A DNA stretch of 32,000 nucleotides from an uncultured Chloroflexia bacterium (GCA_963704755.1 OY969938.1:2970001-3002000); one strand, 5' to 3'; positions 1,510 through 20,339 are shown, counted from the first letter of the stretch. Notes: generated by a model from the sequence alone, not told the origin. Program-made: numbers and translations.

Positions 1510-4500
1510 TCAGGAAGGAATCTCTCCCTTGAGGATATCGGTGTTGTAAAACTTGAACTGACCTTTTTCCCAGACATACAAGGTGTTCTTGCCCGAATGT
1601 TTGGCCGCGTACAGGGCCTGGTCGGTGCGGTTGATCAGCATTTCCAATGAAAAACAATCTTTGTCCAGCCAGCTCAAGCCAATGCTCACGCTGACCTGTA
1701 TACGCTGATTTTCGGCATACTCGATGCCGTTGTATAACCCTTTTTTGAGCCGCAGGCCCACCTTGATGGCTCGTTCCATTTCGGTCTCGGGCAGCAAGAT
1801 GATAAATTCGTCGCCGGCGTAGCGGGCGGGGATATCGGCCTGGCGCAGCACGTGGCGGATGCGGTTGCCGATAAACTCGATCAGCTTGTCGCCGGCCTGG
1901 TGGCCGTAGGTATCGTTGACCAGTTTCAGCCCGTCGATATCGATCATCATCATCGCCATGGGGTTGCCGTAACGCCGGGCGCGGTAAAATTCGTTGCGGG
2001 CCAGGTCGAAGAAATAGCGCCGGTTGTACAGCTCGGTCAGCGGATCGGTGATGGCCATGTGTTCGGTGCGCTCGTACAGGCGGGCATTTTCGATCGCAAT
2101 GGCTGCCTGGTTGGCAAAAGCCTGGGCCAGGGTGGCATCTTCGGGGGTATAGACGTTGGGGGTGCAGCTATCGATGGTCAGGTAGCCGGTCACGTCGCCG
2201 CGAGCGAACAGGGGAATGCCCATCCAGCCGCGCACGTGTTTCGAATCGCCCCAGTGGTTGAAGCGTGGATCGGTTTGCGCATCCGCCAGGACCATGGCCT
2301 TGCGTGTGGTGTAGCTTTCGATGGTGAGCTGGTCGTTGAGCGGGTACATCTGGCCGAGCAGCTTGTCCGAATCGTCGAAGCCGCGGGCCGCGACGATGCG
2401 CAGTTGTTCGCCTACCCGCAAAAAGACCGTGCAACTGTCGAATGGGACGACTTTATCCAGGTTGGTGATGATCTGGTCCAGCACGTGGTCCACGTTCAAA
2501 GCGGAGGTCACGGCATTGGAAACCTCACGCAACGTTTCAGCCTCTTCGGCCCGCCTTTGGGCTGCCTCGAACAGGCGCGCATTTTGAATGGCCTCGCCGG
2601 CTTCCCGTCCCAGGGTAACCGCCAGGGGAATATCCCGCTCCTGTAAAACGTGATTGGCGTCGTAGGTCAGGAAGTTCATCGTCCCCATAATTTCTTCGCC
2701 TCCGCTGACCGGCACGATCAGGGTGGAGTAAACCTGGTCGGTAAGCATGGGCTGGGCCAATTCTGCCCCGGCCTGGAGGTCGTCAACCAACAGCGGTTCG
2801 CGCTCGCGGAAAACCTTCAGGTTAAGGCCGGACTGGATACAGGCCATTACATTGGCCGAAAGGTCGTTGGTTTGGTAAATATTCTTGATCTCGAGTTTGC
2901 CGGCCTTGGGGTCGTTGAGCAGCAGAACGGTGGCCTGGGCGCCGATCAGTTCACAGCTCAACCTTAAGATGTCGTTCAGTACGGTGGACAGGTCCAGGTT
3001 GCTGCCGATACGCTGCAAGATGTCGTTCAGCCGGCGGGTGCGGTTGAGCATTTCCGCCGTTTCCTGGTAAAGCAAGGCGTTCTGCATGGCCAGGCCGGCC
3101 TGGGAGGCGAAGGCCGACAGGATTTGGAGGTGTTCCTGGTTGTAGAAATTGACCTGGCACTTATCCAGGTTAAAGAAAGCCAGGGTCTCGTCGTGGGCGA
3201 TGATTGGGGCGCCGATCCAGGACCGGATGTAGTTGGTGGCATCGAGTGTGACCCAGCCCGGGTATATGCTGGTATCCGCGATGATCATGGGCTTTTTATG
3301 CTCCAGCATCCATTGGAAGTTGGTGGTTTCCTGGATGTTGAACACAAATTGGCTGATAGCGTTGGGAATGTCAATCCCGAATTTTTCGTAGCCCAGGCTG
3401 CGAATGATGATGGCGTTCTTTCCTTTGACCAGGGTCACATTCCCCGAATCGAAAGGCACCACGCGAATCAGTTGCTCGAGCATATTATCCAGGGTCCTGT
3501 CCAGGTCGAGCGACATGGTCATTTCCACGCCAATCTCGCGCAGGGCATTGGAGACTTCGCGCTGGCGATGCTCGGCTTCCATCGTGCGGCGCAGCTCTTC
3601 TTCGCTCTTTTTGCGCGCGGTGATGTCGCGCACAACGCCGATAAAGCTGGTCGGGTTGCCGCCGGGGTCATTGATGACGGTCAGCATTAACTCGGCCGGG
3701 AATGGATCGCCCTGGATGGTCAGCGCAGTAAATTCGACTTTCTGCTGTTGGCCGAGTTTTACGGCGTTCTTGACTACCTCGCGGATACGGTTGTGTTCGT
3801 CGGGAGCGATAAAGTCGTAGACCCAGCGCCCGGCCAGGTGCTCGTTCGGGGCGGCCGCCAACATCTTCACTGCCACCTGGTTGTAGAGGATCAGGCAGCC
3901 GTCCAGGGTGATCATCAAGATGGCATCTGGAGAGGTCTCTACCAGCAAGCGGTAGCGCGTTTCGCTTTCACGCAAGGCTTCCTGCACCCGGTACATTTCG
4001 CTGATGTCGCGGAAGACGATCAGGCGCCCGGCGACGCTGCCGTCCTGGTTGTACAGAGGCCGGATGCGCAGATCGAATTGGCGTGGAAATGCGCCGGTCT
4101 CGTACGTAACCTGTTCGTGTACGCCCGTATGGTCCGCCAGGCGGGCCATTAAAAGGTTCCACGGGCGGGGATATTCCATCAAGGCATGGCCAACCACCTG
4201 GTCGCGGCTGCTCTGCAGCAAGCGGCAGGCGCTGGAATTGATGTCGATCACGCGGTTCATCTCGTCCAGCAAGATAACGGCGTCATCCATGATCTCGATT
4301 AGCACGTCCCGGCCGCGCGGGGTCAGGTCCAGCAGGTGGTAACGATATACCCCAAGCACGATCAGGGCTCCACTGATGATGAAAGAGAAGGGAGTCAGGT
4401 CCAGGCCGGGCAGGGGCATGCGGCCGAACACGTACGTGAAATTGGCCAGCCAGGGAGGCAGCATGGCCAGAATCAACAGGATGGTTTGCGTTTTGAAGAT

Positions 4501-5025
4501 GTTGGATGTACGCGTCAGGTGATAGAGCAATATCACCGAGCCGGCCATAACCAGTGAATAGGAGTAGATCGTATGGACCCAGAAGAGCGGTCCGTGGTCC
4601 AGCGCCAGGAAAACAAATCCGCCCTGGCTGACCATGAATTTGGCCGGGTAATACAGCCGGCTGAGCGGGCCGGTAGTCAGGCTCAAGACGACAAAGGCGG
4701 GTTCAATCAAAAACCACAAGTGAAATTTGGAGGCGAGCCGGTTGGTCCGGCCGGTATAGTTCAGCGAAAAAATAAACCAGGCCGGCGGGATAAGCAAGAT
4801 ACCGGCGTAGCTAAACATATCTATCAGTTGCTTGGGGTAAAAATCGACCAACAGCTCCTGCACGGCCAAGAAGCCCGACCAGAGCGAACTGCCGATCATC
4901 AGCACAGCAATAGCGACCGCTCCGCTGGTGGGACGGCGTCTCCAGGCGGCAATCGCCAGAAAAGCTGAAATTGTGGCAGCTACCAGTAATGCGAAGAAAA
5001 TGGGTGGAAGTTGAATATGAGCCAA
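1510..5025 (-). CDS. Membrane sensor diguanylate cyclase: about 7 TM segments, 2 PAS, 3 GAF, C-terminal GGDEF domain (AGDEF variant)
   Basis: 1171 aa with a TTG start at 5025. The first ~235 aa hold seven hydrophobic segments. PAS-like blocks include ESETRYRLLVETSPDAILMI. Three GAF C-termini end in QNALLYQ, QNARLFE and ENARLYE. The GGDEF domain shows [30 protein letters not shown] and RQADIPARYAGDEFIILL. Confidence 0.9.
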   Translation of the reverse strand: MAHIQLPPIFFALLVAATISAFLAIAAWRRRPTSGAVAIAVLMIGSSLWSGFLAVQELLVDFYPKQLIDMFSYAGILLIPPAWFIFSLNYTGRTNRLASKFHLWFLIEPAFVVLSLTTGPLSRLYYPAKFMVSQGGFVFLALDHGPLFWVHTIYSYSLVMAGSVILLYHLTRTSNIFKTQTILLILAMLPPWLANFTYVFGRMPLPGLDLTPFSFIISGALIVLGVYRYHLLDLTPRGRDVLIEIMDDAVILLDEMNRVIDINSSACRLLQSSRDQVVGHALMEYPRPWNLLMARLADHTGVHEQVTYETGAFPRQFDLRIRPLYNQDGSVAGRLIVFRDISEMYRVQEALRESETRYRLLVETSPDAILMITLDGCLILYNQVAVKMLAAAPNEHLAGRWVYDFIAPDEHNRIREVVKNAVKLGQQQKVEFTALTIQGDPFPAELMLTVINDPGGNPTSFIGVVRDITARKKSEEELRRTMEAEHRQREVSNALREIGVEMTMSLDLDRTLDNMLEQLIRVVPFDSGNVTLVKGKNAIIIRSLGYEKFGIDIPNAISQFVFNIQETTNFQWMLEHKKPMIIADTSIYPGWVTLDATNYIRSWIGAPIIAHDETLAFFNLDKCQVNFYNQEHLQILSAFASQAGLAMQNALLYQETAEMLNRTRRLNDILQRIGSNLDLSTVLNDILRLSCELIGAQATVLLLNDPKAGKLEIKNIYQTNDLSANVMACIQSGLNLKVFREREPLLVDDLQAGAELAQPMLTDQVYSTLIVPVSGGEEIMGTMNFLTYDANHVLQERDIPLAVTLGREAGEAIQNARLFEAAQRRAEEAETLREVSNAVTSALNVDHVLDQIITNLDKVVPFDSCTVFLRVGEQLRIVAARGFDDSDKLLGQMYPLNDQLTIESYTTRKAMVLADAQTDPRFNHWGDSKHVRGWMGIPLFARGDVTGYLTIDSCTPNVYTPEDATLAQAFANQAAIAIENARLYERTEHMAITDPLTELYNRRYFFDLARNEFYRARRYGNPMAMMMIDIDGLKLVNDTYGHQAGDKLIEFIGNRIRHVLRQADIPARYAGDEFIILLPETEMERAIKVGLRLKKGLYNGIEYAENQRIQVSVSIGLSWLDKDCFSLEMLINRTDQALYAAKHSGKNTLYVWEKGQFKFYNTDILKGEIPS

Positions 5026-5626: not shown

Positions 5627-5933
5627 CACGGTGGCCAGGGTCCTTGCTAGTCCATATATATCCTCGCTGACCGGCGCTCTGCCCCCTTTCCCCGCTTCCC
5701 CCCAAATCAAAAGCCGATTTGGAGGGAAGAGCCAAATTCCTCGCTTCCAAATCTTCTCGCTGAAATTCGCGCCGCAACTTTCATAACTTGCGGGTTCTGC
5801 TACCCCCCCCGGCTTTGAAAGCCGGGCTACTAACAGCTAAGAGCTAACAGCTTCCCGCTAACAGCCATCCGATGCCGTTTTATGATAGGATATTCCTGCG
5901 GCTGAAAGATCGATCCATGACCTTATTGTTAGA

Positions 5934-7217
5934 TTGAAAGGGATGATCCCATTGGCGAATATCGATGATCTGATTAATAAACTGCCGGTTGAGACGCGCG
6001 ACATTTTTCGCACGATCTGGGAGAGCCTGGCGCCAGACGATCGCCTGAGCCTGCTCTCGCTGCTGGAAGGGCTGCCCTCGGATGCCAACCTGATTCGCTT
6101 GCTGATGCGTCTGTCCACCAACCAGTTCCGCCTGGCTTTTGGGCAAAAACGGCGCGTGGCTATCGTCGGGCCGGCGAACGTGGGCAAATCGACCCTTTAC
6201 AACCAGTTCATTCATACCAAAGAGGAGCGGGCCGAGGTCAGCCCGCTACCGGGCACTACCCGGGTCTCGCAGCAAGGCGACGCGGGTCTGTTTTCGATTG
6301 TCGACACCCCCGGCGCAGATGCAGTCGGTGAGGTGGGCGAGACCGAACAGCAAGAAGCCCTGGCGTCGGCCGGGCAGGCGGATTTTCTGCTGATTGTTTT
6401 CGACGCCATCCAGGGCATCAAAAAGAGCGAGCTGGACCTGTATTACCAGCTTTTAGGACTTAAAAAACCGCACCTGGTCGTCTTGAACAAGATCGACCTG
6501 GTGCGCAAAGAGAGCAACCAGGTGGTGGCGCGGGTAGCTAAAAGCCTCAACCTGGAACCCGAACAGGTCATTCCGGTGGTCGCCCGCAGCGGGGAAGGGC
6601 TGGCGCATATCCTCAGCGCTATTTCGATGGTCGAGCCTGAGATTGTGGCTGCCCTGGGGCGCGGCCTGCCGGAATATCGCTGGCAGCTCGCCTGGCGCTC
6701 GATTGTTGGGGCCACCTCGGCCTCGGCAGTGATTGCCCTGGCTCCGCTGCCGGTGATCGACTTTGCGCCCCTGGTCGTAACCCAGTCGGTTATGGTGCTG
6801 GGGATTGCCCGGATTTATAATTACCGCATTAATCTGGAACGCGCCCGGGAACTGGTGGTAACCTTTGGCCTGGGGTTTTTGGCGCGGACGTTGTTTGCCG
6901 AGTTCAGTAAACTGGGCGGATTACCGGGCTGGGTGCTTTCGGCAGCTATTGCCTCCTCGACCACGGCCGTGATGGGTTACGCGGCTGCAATCTGGTTCGA
7001 TCGCGGCGAGCGGCTTTCTGCCGAAGCGCTCAAAGACCTGACCCGTACTTTGACCGGGGTATTCCTGGACAGTTTGAAGGATTTTGGCAAACGCAAACCA
7101 GACCGGGCTGGTTTAGAGAAGCGCATCGGCGATGCATTACAACAATCAACCCTTGGGGAGGAACATACCACAACCGATGAGGATGTCGAAGATCAATCTG
7201 CAAAAACTGGTCGGTAG
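5934..7217 (+). CDS. GTP-binding protein with C-terminal DUF697-like membrane domain
   Basis: GTPase motifs are G1 GPANVGKS, G3 DTPG and G4 NKID. The C-terminal hydrophobic region (IVGATSASAVIALAPLPVIDFAPLVVTQSVMVLGIARIYN) is typical of DUF697/YcjF-like domains. The start is ambiguous: TTG 5934 or ATG 5943. Confidence 0.8.
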   Translation: MKGMIPLANIDDLINKLPVETRDIFRTIWESLAPDDRLSLLSLLEGLPSDANLIRLLMRLSTNQFRLAFGQKRRVAIVGPANVGKSTLYNQFIHTKEERAEVSPLPGTTRVSQQGDAGLFSIVDTPGADAVGEVGETEQQEALASAGQADFLLIVFDAIQGIKKSELDLYYQLLGLKKPHLVVLNKIDLVRKESNQVVARVAKSLNLEPEQVIPVVARSGEGLAHILSAISMVEPEIVAALGRGLPEYRWQLAWRSIVGATSASAVIALAPLPVIDFAPLVVTQSVMVLGIARIYNYRINLERARELVVTFGLGFLARTLFAEFSKLGGLPGWVLSAAIASSTTAVMGYAAAIWFDRGERLSAEALKDLTRTLTGVFLDSLKDFGKRKPDRAGLEKRIGDALQQSTLGEEHTTTDEDVEDQSAKTGR

Positions 7218-8100
7218 CCGCTATGGGGTGGGGTTTGCCATCTGGCTCAGCCGGGCCGTACCCCCCTGGTTAGGCTATAAAATCGCGGTTTTGGCGGCCA
7301 GAATTATCGTTTCTAGCAAAAAGAGTGAGATGGGCCGGGCCGTCCGCGCCAACCAATGGATGGCCAGCGGAAAGAGGCTTTCCGGCCGGGAGCTGGAGAA
7401 ACAGACTTACCAGGTCTTTCGCACCAACGTTTACTGTTTGTATGACTATTACCACAACCTGGACCGCCCCCAGGCCGTCCGGGATATGGTCGATTTCGAC
7501 CCGAGTTTCAAAGCCATCCTGACCCAAATCGAGAGCGGCAATTCACCGGCGATGTTCCTGATGCCGCATTTGAGTAATTACGACCTGGCCGGGCGGGCCC
7601 TGGCGCTGTATGGCCTGAAATTCCAGGTGCTGTCCTATCCCCAGCCGCCCAGCGGATACCAGTTGGCCAACCAGTTGCGCCAGGAGGGCGGTATGGAAGT
7701 GACGCCCATGTCGATCCAGGCGGTGCAGCAGGCGCGCCAGCGGTTGAGAGCCGGCGGAGTGGTCCTCACCGGGGTGGACCGGCCATTGAGCGACAGCCGC
7801 TATTTTCCCGCATTCTTTGGACAGCCGGCCCACCTGCCGGTGGCTCACGTCCAACTGGCTTTGCAGGTGGACGTGCCGGTGTACGTGGTGGCCTGCATCC
7901 AGACCAGCCTGGCCCATTACAAGATTGTCGCCAGCCCTAAATTGACCTTGCAACACTACCCCGACCGGGAGACCGGGCTGGTCAAAAATGCCGAGATTAT
8001 TTTGGCCGAGGTCGAAAAACTGGTCCGGGCTTATCCCACTCAATGGGCCATGTTCTATCCGGTCTGGCCCGAGGTGTTACCCAAAATAACCCAACCGTGA
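7177..8100 (+). CDS. LpxL/HtrB-family (lysophospholipid/lipid A type) acyltransferase
   Basis: HX4D motif in MPHLSNYDL, plus LRAGGVVLTGVDRP and FFGQPAHLPVAHVQLAL, as in the Lip_A_acyltrans family. The start is uncertain: ATG 7132, 7177 or 7183. Every option overlaps the GTPase gene, which ends at 7217. Confidence 0.7.
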   Translation: MRMSKINLQKLVGSRYGVGFAIWLSRAVPPWLGYKIAVLAARIIVSSKKSEMGRAVRANQWMASGKRLSGRELEKQTYQVFRTNVYCLYDYYHNLDRPQAVRDMVDFDPSFKAILTQIESGNSPAMFLMPHLSNYDLAGRALALYGLKFQVLSYPQPPSGYQLANQLRQEGGMEVTPMSIQAVQQARQRLRAGGVVLTGVDRPLSDSRYFPAFFGQPAHLPVAHVQLALQVDVPVYVVACIQTSLAHYKIVASPKLTLQHYPDRETGLVKNAEIILAEVEKLVRAYPTQWAMFYPVWPEVLPKITQP

Positions 8101-8171
8101 GATGGAAATGGAGCCTGGCCTCCGCCAATTGTTCTTGGCCGGCAGCATTTTGCCTGGGACATCTCATCCAA

Positions 8172-8220
8172 AAAATTGGGTGTACCAGTGGATTTCCACA
8201 GGTACACCCAATTTTGTTTT
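8172..8220 (+). terminator. Intrinsic terminator after the acyltransferase gene
   Basis: aaaattgggtgtacc-(14-nt loop)-ggtacacccaatttt followed by gttttcg. Confidence 0.7.
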
Positions 8221-8357
8221 CGCGAATAGAGCATCTATGCCGGTCCAGGATTGTCCCGCCAGTCATCGTTTCTGAAAGGTTCGAAGTCAGAACAAACCAA
8301 TTACAATTAGAACTGCGCGGATTGACAGTACAATTATCGTATTTATTGGAGAGCAAT

Positions 8358-11300
8358 GTGGCAGACGAACAAACCATTATTCAACAAATAAATGCTCTGA
8401 CGGTACAATTCACTGCCGGGCTGCCGGGCCAATTGGACGAGCTGGAGCAAAAATGGGGCCAAATCCAGCCTGAGTGGGAAGCGGGTTCAATCGAAAGCCT
8501 GCGCCGGCAGGTCCATTCGCTGGTAGGAACCTCCGGATCGCTGGGTTTTAAATTAATTGCTCAAACTGCCAATAAACTGCAAATTCTACTGAACGATTAC
8601 ATCAAAGAAGGGCAGGACGGGCAACCGCGCCGCGAGGAAGTCGAAGCGGCGTACCTGGCCTTACGGGGTGCTATCCGCAGCGATCACCAGATCGATATGA
8701 GCGAGCTGAACCAGGTGCTGGATTCGGCCCGGATTATCACCGCCAACCTGCAAGAAAAGAGAGCCGACCGGCTGATCTACATGGTCGATGACGACCAGAT
8801 CCAGGCAGCCGACCTGGCGGCCCAAATCGGCTATTTTGGCTATGCGGTCCAGATTTTCAACGCGCTGAACGAACTGGAAGAGGCGATCCGCAAGACCATG
8901 CCCACCGCGCTGCTGATGGACGTCAGCTTTCCGGAAGGGCGCATGGCCGGCTATGAAGCCATCGAATCTTTGCAGGAGAAAATCCCTGAGCTGCCGCCGG
9001 TTATTTTCGTGTCGGTCAACGATGCCATTGATTTTCGTTTACAGGCCGTGCGCGCCGGGGGCCGGGCTTATTTCACCAAGCCGGTCGATATCGGCGACCT
9101 GGTGGATGTGCTCGACCGGCTGATCTTCCATGATAATATTGCGCCTTTTCGCGTGCTGATCGTCGAGGACTCGCGGGTGCAGGCCAACTATATCGCCGTC
9201 CAGTTGAAGAAGGCCGGCATGATCACCGAGATCGTGGCCGACCCGCTCCAGGTCATCGATTATCTCATCCGTTTCAACCCGGATATGCTGCTTTTGGACA
9301 TGTACATGCCCAACTGCACCGGCATGGAACTGGCCCAAATTATCCGCCAGATGGAGCAGTTTATCAGTGTGCCGATCGTGTTCCTTTCGGCAGAGACGGA
9401 TAAGGATAAACAACTGGCCGCGATGGGCATCGGCGGGGATGACTTTCTGACCAAGCCGATCGAGCCCGATCACCTGATCGCCGCGGTGACCACGCGCATC
9501 GAACGCTACCGCAAGCTGCGCATGTTGATGATCCACGACGGGCTGACCGGGCTGTTGAACCACAGCATCACCAAAGAACGGCTCTCGCAGGAAGTCGAGC
9601 GGGCCCGCCGGCAGACCGAGCCACTTTCGTTCGCCATGCTCGACCTGGATAACTTCAAACTGGTCAACGATACCTATGGCCATGCTTCCGGAGACCGGGT
9701 ATTGAAGAGCCTGGCGCACCTGCTGCGCCAGCGCCTGCGCAGCACCGATACCATCGGGCGCGTGGGTGGTGAGGAATTCGCGGTCATTTTCCCCAACACC
9801 GAGGAACAGAAAGCCGCCCGCATCATGCAGGAGTTGTGTGAGGGCTTTGCCAAAATCCGCCACTACAATGGGGAAGAAGAATTCCTGGTTTCCTTCAGTT
9901 GTGGTGTGGCTTCCTTCCCGGATTTCGAGCGCGCGGATATGCTGAGCGAAGCAGCCGACATCGCCATGTACGCAGCCAAAGCGGCCGGGCGTAGCCGGGT
10001 CTTCACCGCCAGCGAGAATGCCGGGCCGGTCTCATTTACCTCGTCCAGGATGACCTTCCCGTATCCAACCGGGCTGTCCTTTGACGCCCTGTACGAGAAC
10101 CTTGTCCGCCACGTCAAGAGCGTGATTATCCGCTTCGATCGCCAGGGGCTGGTTACGTTTGCCAACCAGTACGCTCTGCACTTTTTTGGATTCAGCGAAA
10201 GAGAACTGGTCGGGCAGCCAATCGCCGAAACCATTTTCCTCAAGAGTGAGACGTGTGTCCACGAACTGAAGGCGATGATCGCCGGGATTGTACGCCATGC
10301 GGACCGCTACGAATCGGTCGAAAATGAGTGTGTCCGCAAAGACGGCAAAAAAGTCTGGATGGCCTGGAGCTATACGCCGGTGCTGGATGAAGACGGCGAC
10401 CTGATCGAAATATTGGGAATGGGGAACGATATTACCGATCAAAAGAATGCCGAAAAAGAGCTGGTGCGCTCGGTGACCTACCTGGGGACGATCAACCACA
10501 TTTCCCAGACGATCATGAACCAGCAGAACTTTAAGGAGGCAATCGCCGATGCATCCGCCGAAGTGGTCAAGCTGTTCAATGCCCAGCACGTGGGGATTGG
10601 GCTGCTCGACGAAGATCGCACCGTCCTCAACTTTATCGGCAATTCAGAGACCGGCTGGAGCGAAACCCTGGACCGGCCTAACCAGATCTTCCTGGCCGAA
10701 GAGCCGGCCTCGAATCAGGTCATCCAAAACGGCAAGGCCATTTTTATTTCCGATGCCACCCGCAATCCTTTATTAGCCGATACGCGCGGCCTGATGGCCA
10801 AGCACAAGGTCAATGGTCGCACGATCGTGCCGTTGATCGTGGGCGGCATGGTCATTGGAACGATGAATATCGACCTCGAAGACCCGGAGCGTGAGTTTAC
10901 CACGACAGAATTAGAGCTGGCCGAGACGATTGCCGGGTCGATCGCCGGGGTGATCAAAATCAGCAACCTGTTCAACGCCGAGCAACACCAACGCCACTAC
11001 TTCGAAGCGCTGGTCGATAATATCCCGGTCGCGGTGGAAATCATCGATACCGATTCCCGCATCCAATCCTGGAACCCGGCGGCGGAAGCCCTGTTCGGGT
11101 TTAGCGCCGAGGAAGCCATCGGCCGCAATATCGACGATCTCCTGGCTTCGGACGAGACCCGCGATGAGGCCGTCCGGCTGACTCAGAAATCGATGCGCGA
11201 AGGGGAGTTGATCCATTTCATTACCCACCGTACGCGCAAAGACGGCAGCCGGGTAGAAGTCGAGCTTTTCGCGGTCCCCATGTTCAGGAACAAGCAATCC

Positions 11301-13379
11301 ACCGGCAGCCTGGCGATCTACCATGACATCACCGAGCTGCAGCATGCCCGCCGCGAGGCCGAGGCGGCCAACGAGGCCAAGAGTTCGTTCCTGGCCACCA
11401 TGAGCCATGAAATCCGCACGCCGCTAAACGCGATTGTCGGCATGACCACACTGCTGCTGGATACCAAGTTGAACCAGGAGCAGCAGGAATTTACCGAGAC
11501 CATTCGTTCCAGCAGTGACGCGCTGCTGACCATCATTAACGACATTCTCGATTTCTCCAAAATCGAGGCCGGACGGATGGAACTGGAGGAGCAGCCTTAC
11601 GATTTGCGCGAATGCATCGAATCGGCCTTCGACCTGGTGGCCCCCACGGCGACCGAAAAGGGCATCGACCTGGCTTATTCGCTGGATAACAACGTGCCCT
11701 CTTTTGTAGTCAGCGATTCGACCCGCCTGCGCCAGATCTTGATCAACTTGTTGGGAAACTCGCTTAAATTTACCAACCAGGGTGAGGTCGTCCTGTCCGT
11801 TTCGGCGACCACGCCCACTCCCGCTGAAAATGAGCCGGTCCAGTTGCACTTTGCCGTGCGGGATACCGGTATTGGCATCCCGTCCGACCGCAAGGACCGG
11901 CTGTTCCGTTCGTTCAGCCAGGTGGACGCCTCGACGACCCGCAAATATGGCGGTACCGGCCTGGGACTGGCCATCAGCAAACGCCTGAGTGAGTTGATGG
12001 GCGGCAGCATGTGGGTGGAAAGCGAGGGCGTCTCGGGCAAAGGGTCGACCTTCCACTTTACCATCCTGGCCCGGCCGTCTGAAAAGCCGGTGCCCGTCTT
12101 CCTGAATGCCCGCCAGCCGGAACTGAGCGGCCGCCGGGCGCTGATCGTGGACGACAACGCCACGAACCGCTACATTTTGATGCGCCAGCTTCAGTCCTGG
12201 GGCATGATTCCCCAGGAGACGGCCGATCCGCGCCAGGCCCTGGCCTGGATTGGGGGCGGACGCGAATACGACCTGGTTTTGCTGGATATGCAAATGCCCG
12301 ACATGGATGGGGTCACCCTGGCGGCCGAGATCCAGCATGGCTCGCTCCAAAAAGCCGATCTGCCGCTGGTGATGTTAACGTCGCTGGGGCTCAAGGATAT
12401 CGGCAGCGAGAATGTTAAATTTGCTGCCTTCCTGACCAAACCGATCAAACCGGCGGTGCTTTATACCACTTTGTTGGAGGTGTTCGGCGCCCAGGAAGTG
12501 GAGCTCAAACAGGTTAAAGAGAGGCCCATTGTTGAACCTTCGCACGAATCGCTGTCCTCCCTGCGTATTTTGCTGGCCGAAGATATGACGGTCAACCAAA
12601 AGGTGGCCCTGCTGCTCTTAAAGCGGATTGGCTGCCGGGCGGATGTGGTCGGTAATGGCCTGGAAGTTCTGGATGCACTACGACGCCAGGTATACGATGT
12701 GATTTTGATGGACGTGCAAATGCCGGAAATGGACGGGCTGGCGGCCGCCAGGGCGGTCCGCGGGGGAACCTGGGGGGATTCGCAGGAATCTCACGAGGCT
12801 TTTTCCCAGCCGTATATCATTGCCATGACGGCTAACGCGATGCAGGGCGACCGCGAGGATTGTATTGCCGCCGGCATGGACGATTACATCAGTAAACCCG
12901 TTCAGATCGAGGAACTTTCTCAGGCGCTGGACCGGGCAGCCAGGTCGCGCAAGATCAAGATCGAGCCGGCGCCTCCGCCCATTGGCAGCGGGGTCGCTCG
13001 AAGCGAACTAACCGGCAGTGCGGCCATCGACGCCGAGATCTTTGGTAAGTTCTGCGAAAGCCTGGGCGAAGAGAACCAGTTCATGATCGATTCGCTGGTG
13101 CAAGATTTCCTGGCCGAAGGCGAGCAGCTCACCGCCGAAATCCATTCGCTGAACGAAGCGACCAACCCGGAGAGCTTCCGGCGGGCGGCTCATTCCCTGA
13201 AATCGAGCAGCCAGATGTTCGGGGCCCTGGCTTTATTCCAGACCTGCAAAGAGTTGGAGCAGGAAGCGCGATCGGGCAGCCTGGAGCACGTGGCTCCTTT
13301 GATCGAAAAAATAGACGCCGATTTTTCAGCGGTTCAAGAGGCTTTACTGGGTTGGCTCAATTCGAAAACCCTCCTTTAA
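8358..13379 (+). CDS. Hybrid phosphorelay / diguanylate cyclase megaprotein: Hpt-REC-REC-GGDEF-PAS-GAF-PAS-HisKA-HATPase_c-REC-REC-Hpt
   Basis: The likely start is GTG 8358 (or TTG 8346), after GGAGAG at 8349-8354. The open frame back to 8043 crosses the previous gene and its terminator. Hpt1 is [13 protein letters not shown] (His codon 8514-8516). The receivers carry LLMDVSF..YFTKP and [13 protein letters not shown]. The cyclase site is [14 protein letters not shown] (GGEEF 9765-9779). The H-box is SHEIRTPLN (His 11406-11408). The ATPase shows GNSLKFT, DTGIGIP and [10 protein letters not shown]. The second receiver pair carries [14 protein letters not shown] and [14 protein letters not shown]. 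Hpt2 is [13 protein letters not shown] (His 13191-13193). Confidence 0.9.
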
Positions 13380-13591
13380 AAATATGGCGAGAACGGCCTT
13401 GCCATTCGTGATTTTCTGGCGAAATCCATGATTTCCCTTCGGCTCACTTGATAGGTTAATTGTGCATTCTAATGAAAAAAATACGGATTTGGGGTGTGTG
13501 CAGGGAACGTACACCTCAACCCCGAGAATTTCGCCTCTGAGCCTGGGCAGTTCCGTTAAAAATTCAAATTTTAGAGATTAAGAGCAGGCCA

Positions 13592-15685
13592 ATGAAAAAA
13601 TTCGAGACCAATCTTCCGGCATTGAGGCTAGCCCTGCTATACGTTGCCCTGGCGGGTTTGTGGATTTTGTTTTCCGACCGCATCCTGGCGGACCTGGTGC
13701 ACGACCCGCAAGAGTTGACCCGCTGGCAAAGCTATAAGGGTGTAGCCTTTGTGTTGATCATGGCCCTGCTGCTATTTATCGAGCGTTCGCGGGCAACCCG
13801 CTTGGACCGGATCCGCAACGAGATTGCCCAGCAAAATACAGCCCTTTTCGAGCAAACCCCCAACCCAACTTTTTTGGTCAACCTGGACAACCTGGATATC
13901 CTTGAAGTCAACCGCTCGGCCCAGGAATTATACGGTTTTAGCTATGATGAGTTCCTCAGCATGCGGCTGAACGACCTGGTCATTGGGCTGACACCCGAAC
14001 TCATCGATGATCTGAAAGCCCTGGAAGAGGATGAAACCCGCACCCGCGAGACCCGCCATCGCACCCGTGACAGGCGCGTTCTGGAGTTGTATGGCATCGT
14101 TCGCCGGATGAGCTGGAAAGGTCATTCGGCCGGCCTGTTTGTCTTCACCGACATGACCGCCCGCAGACGCATGGAGGAGCGGGTCGAAAACATCCGCAAA
14201 GAATTGCAGGCCATCGTCGACGCTTCGCCGCTGGCCATCGTCGCCGTGGACCGGAACTCGAATGTGCTTTCCTGGAACACCGCGGCCGAGCGGATATTTG
14301 GCTGGCGTGAAGAAGAGGTTTTAGGGAAACCCTTGCCGTTCGTTTCGCCCGAAATGGAAGAGGAATCGCGGGTGCTGCGCGAAGGCATTGCAATCCGGCG
14401 CGTCAACCAGACGGTGCTGGTGCACCGGCAGCGCCGGGACGGGTCTATTGCTACCTTGAACGTCTCCCTGGCGCCCCTGGTGGATGCCGAAAATCATGTA
14501 ATCGGGGTGATGGAGATGGCCGCCGACGTGACCGAGCAAAGTAAAGCGGAAGAAGAACTGCGCACCACCCGTGAGCTTTTGACCGGCTTGCTGGAAAACG
14601 CCCCGCTCCCGATCTACATCACCGATCCGGGGCATAAACTTTTGCTGGTCAACCATGCCTGGGAAATCAGCAATGGGATGTCGCGCGCCAGCGCCGTCAA
14701 CAAAACCATGGAGGAGGTTTATACACCGGAGGCAGCCCAGATGTTCATCAGCTCGGACCGCGAGGTTTTCGAGACCGGCAGAGTGATCGAAACCGAAGAT
14801 TATGCCGACATGGAAGGCACCCGCCATTATTTTCGCACGATCAAATTCCCTTTGCTTGGCATGGGCCATCATATCGAGATGGTGGGGGGCATATCCATGG
14901 AAGTTACCGAGCGCAAGCAAATGATGGAGATGTTGACCCGCTTGAACAACGAGCTCGAGCAGCGCGTAGCGGACCGCACGGCCGAACTGGCGGCTAAAAA
15001 CGCCGAGTTGGAGACCTTTGCCTATTCGGTTTCACACGATCTGAAGGCCCCTCTGCGCGGGATCGATGGCTACAGCCGGCTGCTTCAGGAAGAATACAGC
15101 GGTAAGCTGGATGAGGATGGCCATCATTTCTTGGAGGCGATCCGCTATTCGAGTACCCAGATGTCTCAGTTGATCGATGACCTGCTGCTGTATTCTCGCA
15201 TGGAGCGGCGCAAGATCAATTTGATCCCGATCGACCCGCAGCGTTTACTGGAAGGGATCCTGGCCAGTTTCGAGAACGACATTCGTGACCGGGATATTCA
15301 AATTAAAGTCGATATTCCCTTTCCAACGGTTTACCACGATGCCGAGGGCTTGCAGCAGGCGCTGCAAAACCTGATCGATAACGCGATCAAGTTTACCGCC
15401 AGGACACCCCAGGCCGTCATCGAAATCGGCGGCCGGCAGACCGAATCCAAGCATATCTTATGGGTCAAGGACAACGGCCCGGGTTTCGACCAGAAATACA
15501 ACAAGCGCATCTTCGAGATCTTCCAACGCCTTTACCGGGTGGAAGATTATCCCGGCACCGGCATCGGCCTGGCTATCGTCCGCAAAGCCATGCAGCGCGT
15601 TGGTGGAGATGTCTGGGCCAAATCGACCCTCGGCGAGGGCAGCACGTTTTACCTGGAGATTCCGATACCGGAAGTTGGCGTTTAG
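13592..15685 (+). CDS. Membrane-anchored PAS sensor histidine kinase
   Basis: 697 aa with two N-terminal TM segments and about three PAS blocks. The H-box is FAYSVSHDLKAPLRGI. ATPase motifs are DNAIKFT, DNGPGF and GTGIGLAIV. Confidence 0.9.
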   Translation: MKKFETNLPALRLALLYVALAGLWILFSDRILADLVHDPQELTRWQSYKGVAFVLIMALLLFIERSRATRLDRIRNEIAQQNTALFEQTPNPTFLVNLDNLDILEVNRSAQELYGFSYDEFLSMRLNDLVIGLTPELIDDLKALEEDETRTRETRHRTRDRRVLELYGIVRRMSWKGHSAGLFVFTDMTARRRMEERVENIRKELQAIVDASPLAIVAVDRNSNVLSWNTAAERIFGWREEEVLGKPLPFVSPEMEEESRVLREGIAIRRVNQTVLVHRQRRDGSIATLNVSLAPLVDAENHVIGVMEMAADVTEQSKAEEELRTTRELLTGLLENAPLPIYITDPGHKLLLVNHAWEISNGMSRASAVNKTMEEVYTPEAAQMFISSDREVFETGRVIETEDYADMEGTRHYFRTIKFPLLGMGHHIEMVGGISMEVTERKQMMEMLTRLNNELEQRVADRTAELAAKNAELETFAYSVSHDLKAPLRGIDGYSRLLQEEYSGKLDEDGHHFLEAIRYSSTQMSQLIDDLLLYSRMERRKINLIPIDPQRLLEGILASFENDIRDRDIQIKVDIPFPTVYHDAEGLQQALQNLIDNAIKFTARTPQAVIEIGGRQTESKHILWVKDNGPGFDQKYNKRIFEIFQRLYRVEDYPGTGIGLAIVRKAMQRVGGDVWAKSTLGEGSTFYLEIPIPEVGV

Positions 15686-17098: not shown

Positions 17099-17749
17099 CT
17101 AAAACCCCATCTCTTTGGTAAACATATCCAGGACGTCGGGGTCGAAGTGTTTACCCCGTTCCGACAGGATATACTCCTGGACCCTTTTCAATTCCCAGGC
17201 GGGCCGGTAAGGCCGGTCGGAGAGCAGCGCGTCCCACACGTCCACAATCGAGAAAATGCGGGCCGCCAGCGGGATCTGCTCGCCCTTTAGTTTGCGCGGA
17301 TAACCACCGCCGTCCCAGCGTTCGTGGTGGCAGTAGGGGATATCGATGGCCGGGCGCAGATAGGCAATCGGCGCCAGCATATCGTACGCATATTGCGGGT
17401 GCATGCGCATGATCGACCATTCGTTGTCATCCAGCGGGCCGGGCTTGTACAGAATCGCGTCGGGCACACCCATTTTGCCGATATCGTGCAGCAGCGCCCC
17501 ACGGCGAATATGTACCAGTTCGTCGGCGCTCAACCCGGCGGCCATGCACAGGCGCACGGTCAATTCAGTCACTCGCAGGGTATGGCCCTCGGTCTCCTTG
17601 TCGCGCAGGTCCAGCGCTCGCGACCAGCCTTCGATCGTGGCGTCGTAGGCCCGGATCAAATCGGTATTCGAGCGCTGCAAATCTTCGAAAAGGCGGGCGT
17701 TATCGACCGCGATGGCGGCCTGGCCGGCCAGAAGCTCCAGAAAATGCAG
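17099..17749 (-). CDS. HD-GYP phosphodiesterase domain: downstream, out-of-frame part of the response-regulator gene
   Basis: Reads LHFLELLAGQAAIAVDNARLFEDL (end of a GAF domain), then ETEGHTLRV, HDIGKMGVPD and HHERWDGGGYP. No usable ATG lies ahead of the domain, and the frame continues from the upstream ORF once one base is removed (see findings). Confidence 0.7.
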   Translation of the reverse strand: MHFLELLAGQAAIAVDNARLFEDLQRSNTDLIRAYDATIEGWSRALDLRDKETEGHTLRVTELTVRLCMAAGLSADELVHIRRGALLHDIGKMGVPDAILYKPGPLDDNEWSIMRMHPQYAYDMLAPIAYLRPAIDIPYCHHERWDGGGYPRKLKGEQIPLAARIFSIVDVWDALLSDRPYRPAWELKRVQEYILSERGKHFDPDVLDMFTKEMGF

Positions 17750-19508
17750 TCCAATCCGGGTTGTGGATCGGCCCGCTGCGCAGGTATACTTCCAGCGCGC
17801 CTTCCAGGTCGCCCTTGGCCAGCAGGGGAATGGCCATGCAGGTCTTGAAACCCTCCCGGCGCAGGTTCTCCTGGATTCCGGCCAGCTCGCGCGGAAAATG
17901 GCCGTTATCGCTTTCCAGGTCGAAGACCGAGATATTGTTAAATTGTTGTGCGGCCATCCCGGCGTAGCCGCTGCCCATTTGCAGGCGGGCGGACTTGGGG
18001 AAATTGTTGTTGAATCCTTGTTGGGCCACATACTCCAGGGTTCTCAAGCCGGGGTGGTAGAGCAGGATCGCGGCCGCATCTACGTTTAGCAGCTTGAGCA
18101 TCTGGTCCAGCACAACCCGCAGGGTCACCCGCAGGTCCATATTCGAGCTGATCGCCTCGTCGATGGCGCGCAAGGCGTTCAACTGGTGTAGCTGCTGCTC
18201 GATCTTTTGAATCGAGGTTTTTCGTTCAGTAATGTCTTCGATGGCGACGATCACCCGCCCGAGGGTCTTTTCGAAGCCCGAAAGCGCCAGCCAGTACATG
18301 TTGGTCGTAATTTCGTGCCCGTCGAATGTCTGGTTGGTGGTTTCGATGTTAAAACTGGTCGCGCCTTTGGAAATCATGACAAACTCATGATGAAGCGGCT
18401 GCCAGTTGTTGAACCCTACCAGGGGGGTCAGGTTATCCAGGTTGCAGTTGTCGTCTTCTAACTTATACAGCTTGCGAGCAGCCCGGTTCATTTCACGCAC
18501 TTTGACCAGCGCGAACAGCCGGTAGATCTCTTCGCTGTGGTCTTTGAGATATTGCTCGAAATTGCCTACCCCGGCGGCTTGCAGGCGGTGAATTTCCGCC
18601 AGCGCATCGGAGAAGTCCTCTTCAACCATGGCGATGGGTGAATCGATGAACAACGAGCGGTAGCGTTTCTCGCTCTCGGACAGAGCGACTCGCTCGCGGG
18701 CCAACTGGTGGCGGTGAAAGGCATCTTCCAGCACCAGCGGAAGCCGGTTGAGGTAATCGAGGGTTTTGGGCAGGTAATCGGAAATACCCAGCTTTACGGA
18801 TTGGAGCGCGATCTCTTCGGCGCCCTGGCCGGTGACCAGAACGATCGGCAGGTCCACCTTGCGGATCTGGACCAGATCCTTGACCAGCTCGAGCGCATTG
18901 ATCCCCGGGAGCCGGTAATCCACCAGCAGCAGGTCGATCTCGGATTGCCAGTCGGGGCGCTCGAAAAATGCCAGCACGCCATTGGCATCATGGACCACCT
19001 GTAAGTTGATGTAAGGCGCGTGAGCCTCGAAATGGCGGCGGGTGAGGTCGATGTCCACAATGTTATCTTCGGCGTATAACACCCGCAGCGGATGCGCCTT
19101 GCGGAACGCGCGGCTGCGAAGCTGCTGGTGAACCGCCTCGATCGTCGGCGCAAGCCGTTCGAGGTAATCGCCGCTTTTGATCATGTAATCGTCGGCGCCG
19201 GCTTTCAATGCCGCTACCACCAGCTCTTCGTCGCCATTGCCGGTGAGCAGGACTGTGCCGACCGGGATGCTCTGGCTGCGGATGTGCGAGAGCAGAGACA
19301 ACCCGTCCCCATCGGGCAAATTACGGTCGATCAGAACGACATCATAGGGATTGGCTTTTCCCCCGCCCAGTTCTTTCAATGCTTCGGCCTGTGTGCCAAC
19401 GATAATTAATTTGATATGGGATGCTTTGCGATCAAGTTCCAGTCGAGCCAGCTCGGCGTCGCTGGGATTATCTTCTACGTATAATACGGAAATCGGTTCG
19501 ATTTTCAT
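17700..19508 (-). CDS. Response regulator REC-REC-PAS-GAF (upstream part of a frame-disrupted REC-REC-PAS-GAF-HD-GYP gene)
   Basis: REC1 shows VEDNPSD..VVLIDRNLPDGDG..YMIKS. REC2 shows AEDNIVD..LLLVDYRLPG..YLPKT. A PAS-like block follows, then a GAF domain that stops prematurely at TAA 17702-17700. Confidence 0.8.
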   Translation of the reverse strand: MKIEPISVLYVEDNPSDAELARLELDRKASHIKLIIVGTQAEALKELGGGKANPYDVVLIDRNLPDGDGLSLLSHIRSQSIPVGTVLLTGNGDEELVVAALKAGADDYMIKSGDYLERLAPTIEAVHQQLRSRAFRKAHPLRVLYAEDNIVDIDLTRRHFEAHAPYINLQVVHDANGVLAFFERPDWQSEIDLLLVDYRLPGINALELVKDLVQIRKVDLPIVLVTGQGAEEIALQSVKLGISDYLPKTLDYLNRLPLVLEDAFHRHQLARERVALSESEKRYRSLFIDSPIAMVEEDFSDALAEIHRLQAAGVGNFEQYLKDHSEEIYRLFALVKVREMNRAARKLYKLEDDNCNLDNLTPLVGFNNWQPLHHEFVMISKGATSFNIETTNQTFDGHEITTNMYWLALSGFEKTLGRVIVAIEDITERKTSIQKIEQQLHQLNALRAIDEAISSNMDLRVTLRVVLDQMLKLLNVDAAAILLYHPGLRTLEYVAQQGFNNNFPKSARLQMGSGYAGMAAQQFNNISVFDLESDNGHFPRELAGIQENLRREGFKTCMAIPLLAKGDLEGALEVYLRSGPIHNPDWTAFSGASGRPGRHRGR

Positions 19509-19557: not shown

Positions 19558-19998
19558 TCATAGATTTACCCGCGGAGCGGTGTTCAGCATGGTCCAATAG
19601 ATTTCGATTTCTCGGGCCACTTCCATGAATTTCTCAAAGTTGACCGGTTTGATGATATAGGAGTTTGCACCCAGGCGGTAGGCCGTTTCGATATCGCGGT
19701 CTTCGGCCGAGGTGGTCAGAACCACCACTGGAACTTTTCCCAATTGAGGATGGCTTTTGAGGTTTTGCAACACTTCCAGGCCATCGATCTTGGGTAACTT
19801 TAGGTCCAGCAGAACCAAAACCGGGAAGGGGTCGGGGACTTTCCAACCCAGGATATAATCCAGGGCTTCCTCGCCATCTCGGGCAACAATGAATTGGTTG
19901 AGGACCTTGCGGCGGGTAAAGGCACGCCGGGTCAGATCGACGTCTAACGGGTTGTCCTCAACAAGCAGGATAGGTTGATTATAGTTGATTTCGCTCAT
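19558..19998 (-). CDS. Single-domain CheY-like response regulator (Rcp1-like receiver)
   Basis: Reads MSEINYNQPILLVEDNPLDVDL..VLVLLDLKLPKIDG..VVVLTTS..YIIKP. ATG 19998 is preceded by GGAG 7 nt upstream. The TTG at 20043 in the ORF track adds an unlikely 15 aa. The gene lies 49 nt upstream of the REC-REC-PAS-GAF gene on the same strand. Confidence 0.85.
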   Translation of the reverse strand: MSEINYNQPILLVEDNPLDVDLTRRAFTRRKVLNQFIVARDGEEALDYILGWKVPDPFPVLVLLDLKLPKIDGLEVLQNLKSHPQLGKVPVVVLTTSAEDRDIETAYRLGANSYIIKPVNFEKFMEVAREIEIYWTMLNTAPRVNL

Positions 19999-20339
19999 AA
20001 AATATCTCCGGAAATGTCCCTCCTCAGTCGTTAGTCCGAACAAACAGATATTAGCGCTATCTTATTAAAAGAGCCTATTGCTTTTCCACACGTTCACGCG
20101 CAAATAATGGCCGCACCAGCAGGTTAATGGGTATGAAATTGCTTGAAGTGGAATTTGTGTTTGAACGTGAGGCGCCGCGAAGGGCATAGAAAGCAATATC
20201 CTGCCATAACCGCCCGAGCGATAAGCCGGGTATGAACGGTTATAGCCTTGACTACATATTAGCACAGAACTAAAAGTATTTATAAGGTTTTGTTAAAAGT
20301 AAACGTAAAAATACCGTTAATTTTTCTTAAGGTGTACGG

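Follow-up and report, generated by a model that had tools for sequence, protein, structure and literature searches.

Introduction

The closest described relatives of the protein examined in this work are receiver-coupled diguanylate cyclases and hybrid histidine kinases. The protein is a single chain of twelve signalling domains from an uncultured Chloroflexia bacterium. Its domain order is Hpt-REC-REC-GGDEF-PAS-GAF-PAS-HisKA-HATPase-REC-REC-Hpt, where Hpt denotes a histidine phosphotransfer domain and REC a receiver domain. The gene occupies positions 8358 to 13379 of a 32,000-nucleotide stretch of DNA (GCA_963704755.1 OY969938.1:2970001-3002000), and this whole stretch is referred to as the window.

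The receiver-coupled cyclases, which produce cyclic di-GMP (c-di-GMP), are represented by PleD, DgcR and WspR. In PleD of Caulobacter, the first REC is the phospho-acceptor and the second REC is a degenerate adaptor. PleD (PDB 1w25, 2v0n, 2wb4) shares the REC-REC-GGDEF order, the GGEEF motif and an RxxD motif five residues upstream with the twelve-domain protein, but it has no Hpt and no kinase. Both receivers are intact in the twelve-domain protein, and the score against the PleD model of NCBIfam (NF007135) was 194.6 bits, compared with a cut-off of 474 bits, over model positions 150-455 only. DgcR of Leptospira biflexa (PDB 6zxb, 6zxc, 6zxm) is the best solved relative of the REC2-GGDEF unit (aa 267-552), which scored 217 bits with DgcR (6zxm), 188 bits with PleD and 150 bits with WspR. 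The activation of the cyclase unit can plausibly be modelled on that of DgcR. However, DgcR is a two-domain protein with nothing that matches the Hpt, REC1 or the kinase, and the score against its NCBIfam model (NF047654) was 199.8 bits, below the cut-off of 500 bits.

The kinases ArcB, BarA and TorS share the HisKA-HATPase-REC-Hpt core and all catalytic boxes with the twelve-domain protein, and they are the best NCBIfam matches of its C-terminal half. The scores were below the equivalog cut-offs of TorS (450 against 676.5 bits), BarA (440 against 890 bits) and ArcB (427 against 838 bits). In contrast to these three kinases, the twelve-domain protein has no transmembrane or periplasmic sensor, has two post-kinase receivers and begins with Hpt-REC-REC-GGDEF. 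It also differs from CheA (class II) in its intact HisKA H-box and in having no CheW domain according to Pfam. The presence of seven phosphorylation sites in one chain is not unique, since ChpA of Pseudomonas has more.

The GGDEF domain of SgmT is a non-catalytic receptor located after the kinase, and ShkA senses c-di-GMP via a pseudo-receiver. In contrast, the GGDEF domain of the twelve-domain protein has every catalytic motif and precedes the sensor domains. The likeness is that one protein or pathway combines a kinase with c-di-GMP signalling, as in ShkA (PMC6969517) and in SgmT of Myxococcus, a hybrid kinase with a C-terminal GGDEF domain that binds c-di-GMP (PMC3509222).

CdgK of Anabaena PCC 7120 is a multi-PAS/GAF kinase with the order HisKA-HATPase-REC1-REC2-Hpt. 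Phosphoryl groups pass from H1149 of CdgK to D1604 (second REC), then to H1757 (Hpt) and finally to D60 of the REC-GGDEF cyclase CdgS, while the first REC is dispensable (PMC9927289). This H-D-H-D logic, which activates a REC-GGDEF protein, is the same as that proposed below for the twelve-domain protein. However, the relay is divided between CdgK and CdgS, CdgK is anchored in the membrane and has a CHASE domain, and CdgS has no Hpt and no second receiver before its cyclase.

Domain composition and active sites

The domains were identified with Pfam at the gathering cut-offs. All twelve domains scored above their cut-offs, in the order proposed in a preliminary description that had been made from the window's sequence alone. 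The domains and motifs are as follows.

8385..8702, + strand: N-terminal Hpt, aa 10-115; phospho-His H53 at 8514-8516
8769..9125, + strand: REC1, aa 138-256; D145, D146, D188 (8919-8921), S219, K241; Pfam 59.8 bits
9147..9503, + strand: REC2, joined to the cyclase, aa 264-382; E270, D271, D314 (9297-9299), S344, K366; Pfam 87.9 bits
9525..10007, + strand: GGDEF diguanylate cyclase, aa 390-550; Pfam PF00990 155 bits
9738-9749, + strand: I-site RSTD, aa 461-464; five residues before GGEEF
9765-9779, + strand: GGEEF, aa 470-474
10080..10472, + strand: PAS1, aa 575-705; Pfam PAS_9/PAS_4/PAS, about 50 bits
10500..10967, + strand: GAF, aa 715-870; Pfam GAF_2 50 bits, GAF 46.9 bits
10989..11351, + strand: PAS2, aa 878-998; Pfam PAS 65.6 bits
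11364..11582, + strand: HisKA/DHp, aa 1003-1075; H-box SHEIRTPLN, H1017 at 11406-11408; Pfam 85.5 bits
11700..12077, + strand: HATPase_c, aa 1115-1240; N box N1130/N1134, DTGIGI 1169-1174, GGTGLGL 1198-1204; Pfam 101 bits
12129..12491, + strand: REC3, aa 1258-1378; D1265, D1266, D1310 (12285-12287), T1341, K1361; Pfam 58 bits on a clipped segment
12555..12932, + strand: REC4, aa 1400-1525; E1408, D1409, D1452 (12711-12713), T1491, K1513
13020..13352, + strand: C-terminal Hpt, aa 1555-1665; motif HSLKSSS, H1612 at 13191-13193; Pfam 53.8 bits

REC4 was split across two test segments, and Pfam identified four REC stretches in the whole protein. The three histidine codons were checked directly and agree with the preliminary description. 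The active-site quintets of the four receivers (acidic pair, phospho-Asp, Ser/Thr and Lys), the GGEEF motif and the RSTD motif were likewise located at the codons first assigned to them. The count of seven potential phosphorylation sites is thus correct, as are the cyclase motifs.

The N-terminal Hpt is the weakest of the twelve domains (PF01627, 39.3 bits against a cut-off of 24.6 bits, aa 18-102). This domain and the two N-terminal receivers, on which the preliminary description had made its reading depend, are all supported by the domain searches. Hpt domains such as those of ArcB, Ypd1 and CheA (P1) have the motif H-x-x-K-G with Lys at H+3. The N-terminal Hpt has H-S-L-V-G-x-x-G-S-L-G-F, where Gly at H+4 is kept and the usual Lys at H+3 is Val. 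Among Hpt domains of this type in the cassette family described below, H+3 is mostly Ala, and Lys occupies it in only 4 of 78. The matches of the N-terminal Hpt to solved structures are weak, with BRIC1 (6ff6) at the top (E 7e-5) and mostly CheA P1 domains among the others (8c5v, E 0.005; 1i5n, E 0.03). The best solved relative of the C-terminal Hpt is 7c1i (E 6e-12).

The GGDEF domain scored 154.7 bits with TIGR00254 (cut-off 37.4 bits). The residues D429/D431, N437, D446, K541 and R545, together with GGEEF, presumably correspond to the catalytic positions of PleD. D429/D431, N437, D446, GGEEF (apart from E/D at 472) and K541 are invariant in the orthologues and R545 is nearly so. The domain therefore has the profile match, the motif and the predicted metal- and GTP-binding residues of an active diguanylate cyclase. 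The kinase half has the features of a class I unorthodox hybrid kinase, which are the H-box His, the N, G1, F and G2 boxes, the post-kinase receiver Asp and the C-terminal Hpt His.

The AlphaFold2 (AF2) model of aa 1-556 has a predicted local distance difference test score (pLDDT) of 75.6 and a predicted template modelling score (pTM) of 0.56. Helices 4-36, 42-62, 65-84 and 89-108 form a helical bundle in the model, with H53 in helix 42-62. The bundle is followed by two CheY-like domains and a GGDEF fold. The linker between REC and GGDEF, which in DgcR-type cyclases is a continuous helix that transmits activation, has helix 370-393 in the model, followed by a low-confidence break at 390-400. 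The top Foldseek matches of the model are PleD (E about 1e-26, about 450 aligned columns), DgcR and WspR.

The twelve-domain orthologue family

Homologs were identified in a search of 5.8 billion proteins, and the matches were typed with domain hidden Markov models built from the orthologue alignment. Twenty-five clusters scored 1225-3720 bits, and the next best match scored 797 bits. The same twelve-domain order was found in 17 of the 25 clusters, four clusters lack PAS1 only and four are fragments. P0014, P0016, P0021, P0022 and P0023 are variants of the subfamily, with PAS1 missing in four clusters and a stretch of about 170 additional residues that P0023 has between its GAF and PAS2. All twelve domains were also identified in two loci of metagenome-assembled genomes (MAGs) from a genome scan, L004 from an 'uncultured Chloroflexia' (70% identity) and L005 from Ornatilinea sp. 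(63% identity), which may overlap the 17 protein clusters. The nearest named genus among the genome-scan relatives is Ornatilinea (Anaerolineae, Chloroflexota). As far as seen, the chain is confined to Anaerolineae-type Chloroflexota.

The conservation of sites was measured over 16 full-length orthologues that share 54-72% identity. H53, H1017, H1612, the four phospho-Asp residues with their Lys residues and RxxD are invariant in all 16 orthologues, as are the N, G1 and G2 boxes of the kinase. H53 is invariant although the rest of the N-terminal Hpt is poorly conserved. The other active-site positions are invariant or conservatively exchanged (S/T at 219, E/D at 270 and 472). REC1 is fully intact in 21 of the 22 members of the twelve-domain subfamily. 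The neighbourhoods of the orthologues are unrelated, and no conserved partner gene was found across them, which fits a self-contained pathway.

The orthologous genes of two MFD MAGs (L006 and L010) are interrupted, with open reading frames (ORFs) of 1206 aa and 496 aa in which the domain order ends early. These interruptions are probably frameshift errors of the assemblies.

The twelve-domain chain is a real conserved family in which known parts are arranged in an unusual way, and it does not represent a system of a new kind. The preliminary description had also considered that the ORF could be an assembly join, and this worry is dispelled by the same domain order in many independent assemblies.

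The C-terminal and N-terminal cassettes

The whole protein is a fusion of two widespread cassettes, Hpt-REC-REC-GGDEF and a PAS-GAF-PAS unorthodox hybrid kinase. The C-terminal half (PAS-GAF-PAS-HisKA-HATPase-REC-REC-Hpt) is an ordinary unorthodox hybrid kinase cassette, and HisKA-HATPase-REC3-REC4(-Hpt) was found in dozens of search matches. Among 33 non-orthologous HisKA-HATPase-REC-REC (HK-REC-REC) proteins, the REC4 quintet is kept in all 33, and the REC3 quintet is mostly preserved, with clear degeneration in two proteins.

The distribution of the N-terminal cassette was determined by running an Hpt+REC1 profile against 1.84 billion representatives clustered at 50% identity. The profile matched 2,258 clusters at E<=1e-30, which is an upper bound since proteins with multiple REC domains can sum scores; the full-length matches listed give a floor of about 140. 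The match at rank 150 still scored 258 bits over the whole profile. Hpt-REC-REC is thus a widespread mobile cassette. The preliminary description did not recognise an N-terminal Hpt placed before REC-REC-GGDEF and a kinase, and this part of it does not hold, since the cassette is common and is fused to hybrid kinases in several orders.

The 142 new representatives include 84 stand-alone Hpt-REC-REC-GGDEF proteins, 11 REC-Hpt-REC-REC-GGDEF proteins and about 19 Hpt-REC-REC-(PAS)-kinase proteins. P0163 and P0222, which belong to the last group, also end in Hpt. At least two representatives have EAL at the C-terminus by Pfam (P0162 and P0165), and several more have an unassigned C-terminal extension. 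Relatives with the order Hpt-REC-REC-PAS-HK-REC exist without any output domain. The kinase precedes the cassette in P0026 and P0027 (REC-HisKA-HATPase-REC-Hpt-REC-REC-GGDEF). Other fusions join Hpt-REC-REC-GGDEF to PilZ-REC in Nitrospiraceae and to PAS-GGDEF-EAL in P0109. The stand-alone proteins (about 550-620 aa) are found in Ornatilinea apprima, Anaerolineae, Chloroflexales, Geobacter, other Desulfuromonadaceae, Rhodospirillaceae and Azospirillum.

About 35 clusters from Chloroflexus, Roseiflexus, Oscillochloris and Viridilinea (P0036-P0071, roughly 940 aa) consist of Hpt-REC-REC-GGDEF and REC-SpoIIE. In the Chloroflexus SpoIIE type, the acidic pair of REC1 is R/H-N, Ser/Thr is Ala and Lys is Arg, and the Hpt His is kept. 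Fused in a single chain, the parts of this SpoIIE(PP2C) type are reminiscent of the Pseudomonas HptB/HsbR/HsbD pathway.

Of 194 cassette proteins, 193 retain the Hpt His and 184 the REC2 quintet, and in the first set of 88 proteins all 88 have the REC2 quintet. REC1 varies more, with its quintet complete in just 133 of the 194 proteins and its Asp present in 182. The near-constant Hpt His and REC2, beside the variable REC1, indicate that the constant partnership of the cassette is that of Hpt and REC2. The residues lost suggest that about a third of the cassette lineages can do without REC1 as a phospho-acceptor. The label 'PleD/WspR-like' given in the preliminary description therefore stands for the REC-REC-GGDEF order and the motifs, but not for the roles of the receivers, since, in contrast to PleD, it is REC1 that is often degenerate in the wider family and REC2 that stays constant.

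The stand-alone homologue of Ornatilinea apprima P3M-1 (L008, locus 5818-7560), which is the only cultured close relative, has Val in place of the Hpt His and T-T in place of the REC1 acidic pair, with REC2 and GGEEF intact. The Hpt-REC-REC-GGDEF homologues L018, L020, L021 and L037 of Geobacter/Desulfuromonadaceae have GGQKF in place of GGEEF, with RxxD and REC2 intact, and may be c-di-GMP receptors and not cyclases. P0135 is a giant protein (4858 aa) that ends in HATPase_c and also has HAMP and at least 15 Hpt stretches by Pfam (30 with the Hpt+REC1 profile).

The literature searches returned no paper on an N-terminal Hpt with a diguanylate cyclase or on the orders Hpt-REC-REC, Hpt-REC-GGDEF and Hpt-REC-REC-GGDEF, and the genome surveys that mention both Hpt and GGDEF do not describe the architecture. 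No curated family model was found for the cassette or the chain, and no NCBIfam equivalog cut-off was reached. The preliminary description had allowed that the architecture could turn out to be widespread and already characterised. The N-terminal architecture is indeed widespread, but neither it nor the exact twelve-domain chain seems to have been studied.

Proposed phosphorelay and alternative explanations

An intramolecular relay from the kinase of the protein to its own cyclase is the most likely mechanism, and it is held here with slightly better than even confidence. A signal sensed by the PAS and GAF domains would set the autophosphorylation of H1017. The phosphoryl group would then be transferred to D1452 of REC4, a receiver with an unvarying active site in this kinase type. 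From D1452 the phosphate would pass to an Hpt histidine, and from the Hpt to D314 of REC2. Phosphorylated REC2 would turn on c-di-GMP synthesis as in DgcR-, PleD- and WspR-type enzymes, and the RxxD I-site would impose product inhibition on the cyclase. The N-terminal Hpt (H53) would be the port that normally feeds REC1/REC2 in the cassette. The HptB-like C-terminal Hpt (H1612) may feed REC1/REC2 likewise, or may pass phosphate out of the chain to further regulators. The intact REC1 and REC3 are probably additional gates or sinks.

The comparative evidence for this relay comes from fusions of the cassette to hybrid kinases. Of 18 such fusions that are complete and non-orthologous, 16 have no Hpt other than the N-type one. 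The only route in those proteins would be from the kinase REC to that Hpt and then to REC1/REC2. P0026 and P0027 place the Hpt between the kinase receiver and REC1-REC2, which is the order of a linear relay and supports a role in cis.

Several points weigh against the intramolecular relay. What is observed is the set of domains and sites, the degree to which they are conserved and the way the architectures compare across members, and it is from these that we infer every phosphotransfer step and its direction. Two Hpt domains exceed the needs of one linear relay, so that the wiring is under-determined. The strictly intact REC1 and REC3 in the subfamily suggest something beyond a simple four-step chain. 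The relative positions of the domains in the AF2 model are uncertain, given its pTM. Covariation analysis by mutual information with average product correction (MI-APC) over 194 cassette sequences did not separate Hpt-REC1 from Hpt-REC2 coupling. Intradomain pairs were enriched, and the top interdomain pairs join Hpt 15/62/75 with REC1 221-226 and REC2 275/282; these pairs draw repeatedly on a small set of columns and probably reflect subfamily membership. The window also encodes other possible partners, namely a PAS-PAS kinase downstream, a REC-only gene and a REC-REC-GAF-HD-GYP gene. The sorting of the four receivers into intermediate and terminal ones by the FATGUY feature was dropped, as the motif has been described as not general (PMC9981736).

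The alternative that survives best, although we consider it rather unlikely, is that the two halves are wired separately and share one chain only for co-expression or co-localisation. H53 would then be fed by other hybrid kinases, and H1612 would serve other regulators such as the nearby HD-GYP protein. Most cassette proteins (84 of the 142 representatives) indeed stand alone and need a partner in trans, HK-REC-REC-Hpt proteins are common alone and serve separate regulators (e.g., CdgK), and further kinase and receiver genes are present in the window. However, the 16 of 18 fusions with the N-type Hpt as the sole Hpt beside a hybrid kinase favour transfer in cis. The orthologues also have no conserved partner genes, and all seven sites are invariant within a single conserved chain.

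A self-contained branching relay is a more speculative proposal, which we hold as unlikely. Phosphorylated REC4 would divide its phosphate between two non-equivalent Hpt domains. The N-terminal Hpt would serve the protein's own cyclase via REC2, with REC1 as a second gate, and the C-terminal Hpt would serve outside regulators such as the nearby HD-GYP phosphodiesterase. The synthesis and breakdown of c-di-GMP would thereby be set reciprocally, and Hpt-REC-REC would represent a large unstudied class of 'Hpt-coupled' receiver modules.

It is quite improbable that the extra receivers and Hpt are mainly phosphate sinks or feedback elements, such that phosphorylated REC1-REC2 or c-di-GMP regulates the kinase in the style of ShkA or CckA and the kinase does not drive the cyclase. 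The REC-REC pair of the Hpt-REC-REC-PAS-HK-REC relatives, which have no output domain, can act only on the kinase or on partners, and control of hybrid kinases by c-di-GMP is known from ShkA (PMC6969517) and SgmT (PMC3509222). However, REC2-GGDEF is a canonical and fully intact receiver-cyclase unit that is closest to DgcR, and no c-di-GMP-binding motif was identified in the kinase half, although no search was aimed at one.

Direct phosphorylation of the N-terminal Hpt by the ATP-binding domain as in CheA P1, bypassing the H-box, is very improbable. It is suggested by the weak structure matches, which are mostly to CheA P1 (8c5v and 1i5n), though the top match is BRIC1 (6ff6). However, the HisKA H-box is intact and invariant, Pfam shows no CheW-like or P2/P3-type domains, and a kinase domain is missing from most cassette proteins.

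An assembly chimera, a fused pseudogene or two genes joined by sequencing error can be dismissed, since nothing supports it directly beyond the two interrupted MAG loci (L006 and L010), while the same domain order recurs in 17 clusters and two genome-scan loci from different sources at 54-72% identity, the sites are conserved in the orthologues, the guanine-cytosine (GC) composition is even along the ORF and the internal domains are mutually divergent.

Reading frame and neighbouring genes

The features of the gene and its borders are as follows.

7132-8100: lipid-A-acyltransferase-like gene that precedes the twelve-domain gene
8349..8352, + strand: GGAG ribosome-binding site, 5 nt 5' of GTG, read from the sequence
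8358..13379, + strand: whole gene, 1673 codons and stop, GTG start, monocistronic
13384..13405, + strand: terminator-like hairpin with T-rich tail, 5 nt 3' of the stop, consensus match only

The stop-to-stop frame extends from 8043 to 13379, and the preliminary description had chosen the GTG at 8358 as the start. An alternative upstream start was ruled out, as the 105 codons 5' of the GTG overlap the preceding acyltransferase gene and match no Pfam family. The database protein P0001 (1673 aa) has the same start codon and is identical to the ORF over its full length (100% identity and coverage). GC is level along the ORF and dips in both AT-richer intergenic flanks. The repeated domains within the protein share only 23-35% identity, which excludes a repeat or assembly artefact and rules out a recent internal duplication. 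A 19-residue hydropathy scan of the whole protein identified no membrane helix. The highest Kyte-Doolittle mean is 1.62, located inside GAF, and the lack of a membrane-grade hydrophobic segment indicates that the protein is soluble and cytoplasmic.

The other signalling genes of the window are as follows.

1510-5025, - strand: HisKA_7TM, PAS, GAF and GGDEF protein, 1171 aa, joining a 7TM membrane sensor to a diguanylate cyclase
13592-15685, + strand: PAS-PAS-HisKA-HATPase kinase, non-hybrid, 212 nt downstream of the twelve-domain gene
17099-18031, - strand: HD-GYP ORF, 4 kb from the twelve-domain gene
17700-19508, - strand: REC-REC-GAF ORF, overlapping the HD-GYP ORF
19558-20043, - strand: stand-alone receiver gene, 161 aa, immediately 5' of the HD-GYP regulator, same strand

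The window is rich in genes of c-di-GMP signalling. The pairing with the downstream PAS-PAS kinase is not kept beside the orthologues. The overlapping ORFs at 17099-19508 (- strand) resemble one REC-REC-GAF-HD-GYP phosphodiesterase gene that is broken by a frameshift, where the GAF C-terminus resumes in the other frame ('...NPDW' / 'IGLHFLELLAGQAAIAVDNARLF'). Either a true pseudogene or a sequencing error could account for the split.

Significance of the twelve-domain protein and its cassette family

The exact combination of twelve domains is an unusual one, and the kinase and cyclase building blocks are already known. The intramolecular relay is plausible from the sites and architectures compared in this work. 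If the relay runs within the chain, the protein would represent, in compact form, a complete natural pathway from sensor to second messenger. It would also suit the study of specificity and direction, with four receivers and two Hpt domains tethered to each other.

The more general point concerns the Hpt-REC-REC-GGDEF family. The family is very large, with a lower bound of about 140 and an upper bound of about 2,000 clusters at 50% identity, spans Chloroflexota, Desulfuromonadota and Alphaproteobacteria, and appears to have no curated model or studied member. The cassette family reverses the PleD rule on which of the two receivers is the real one.

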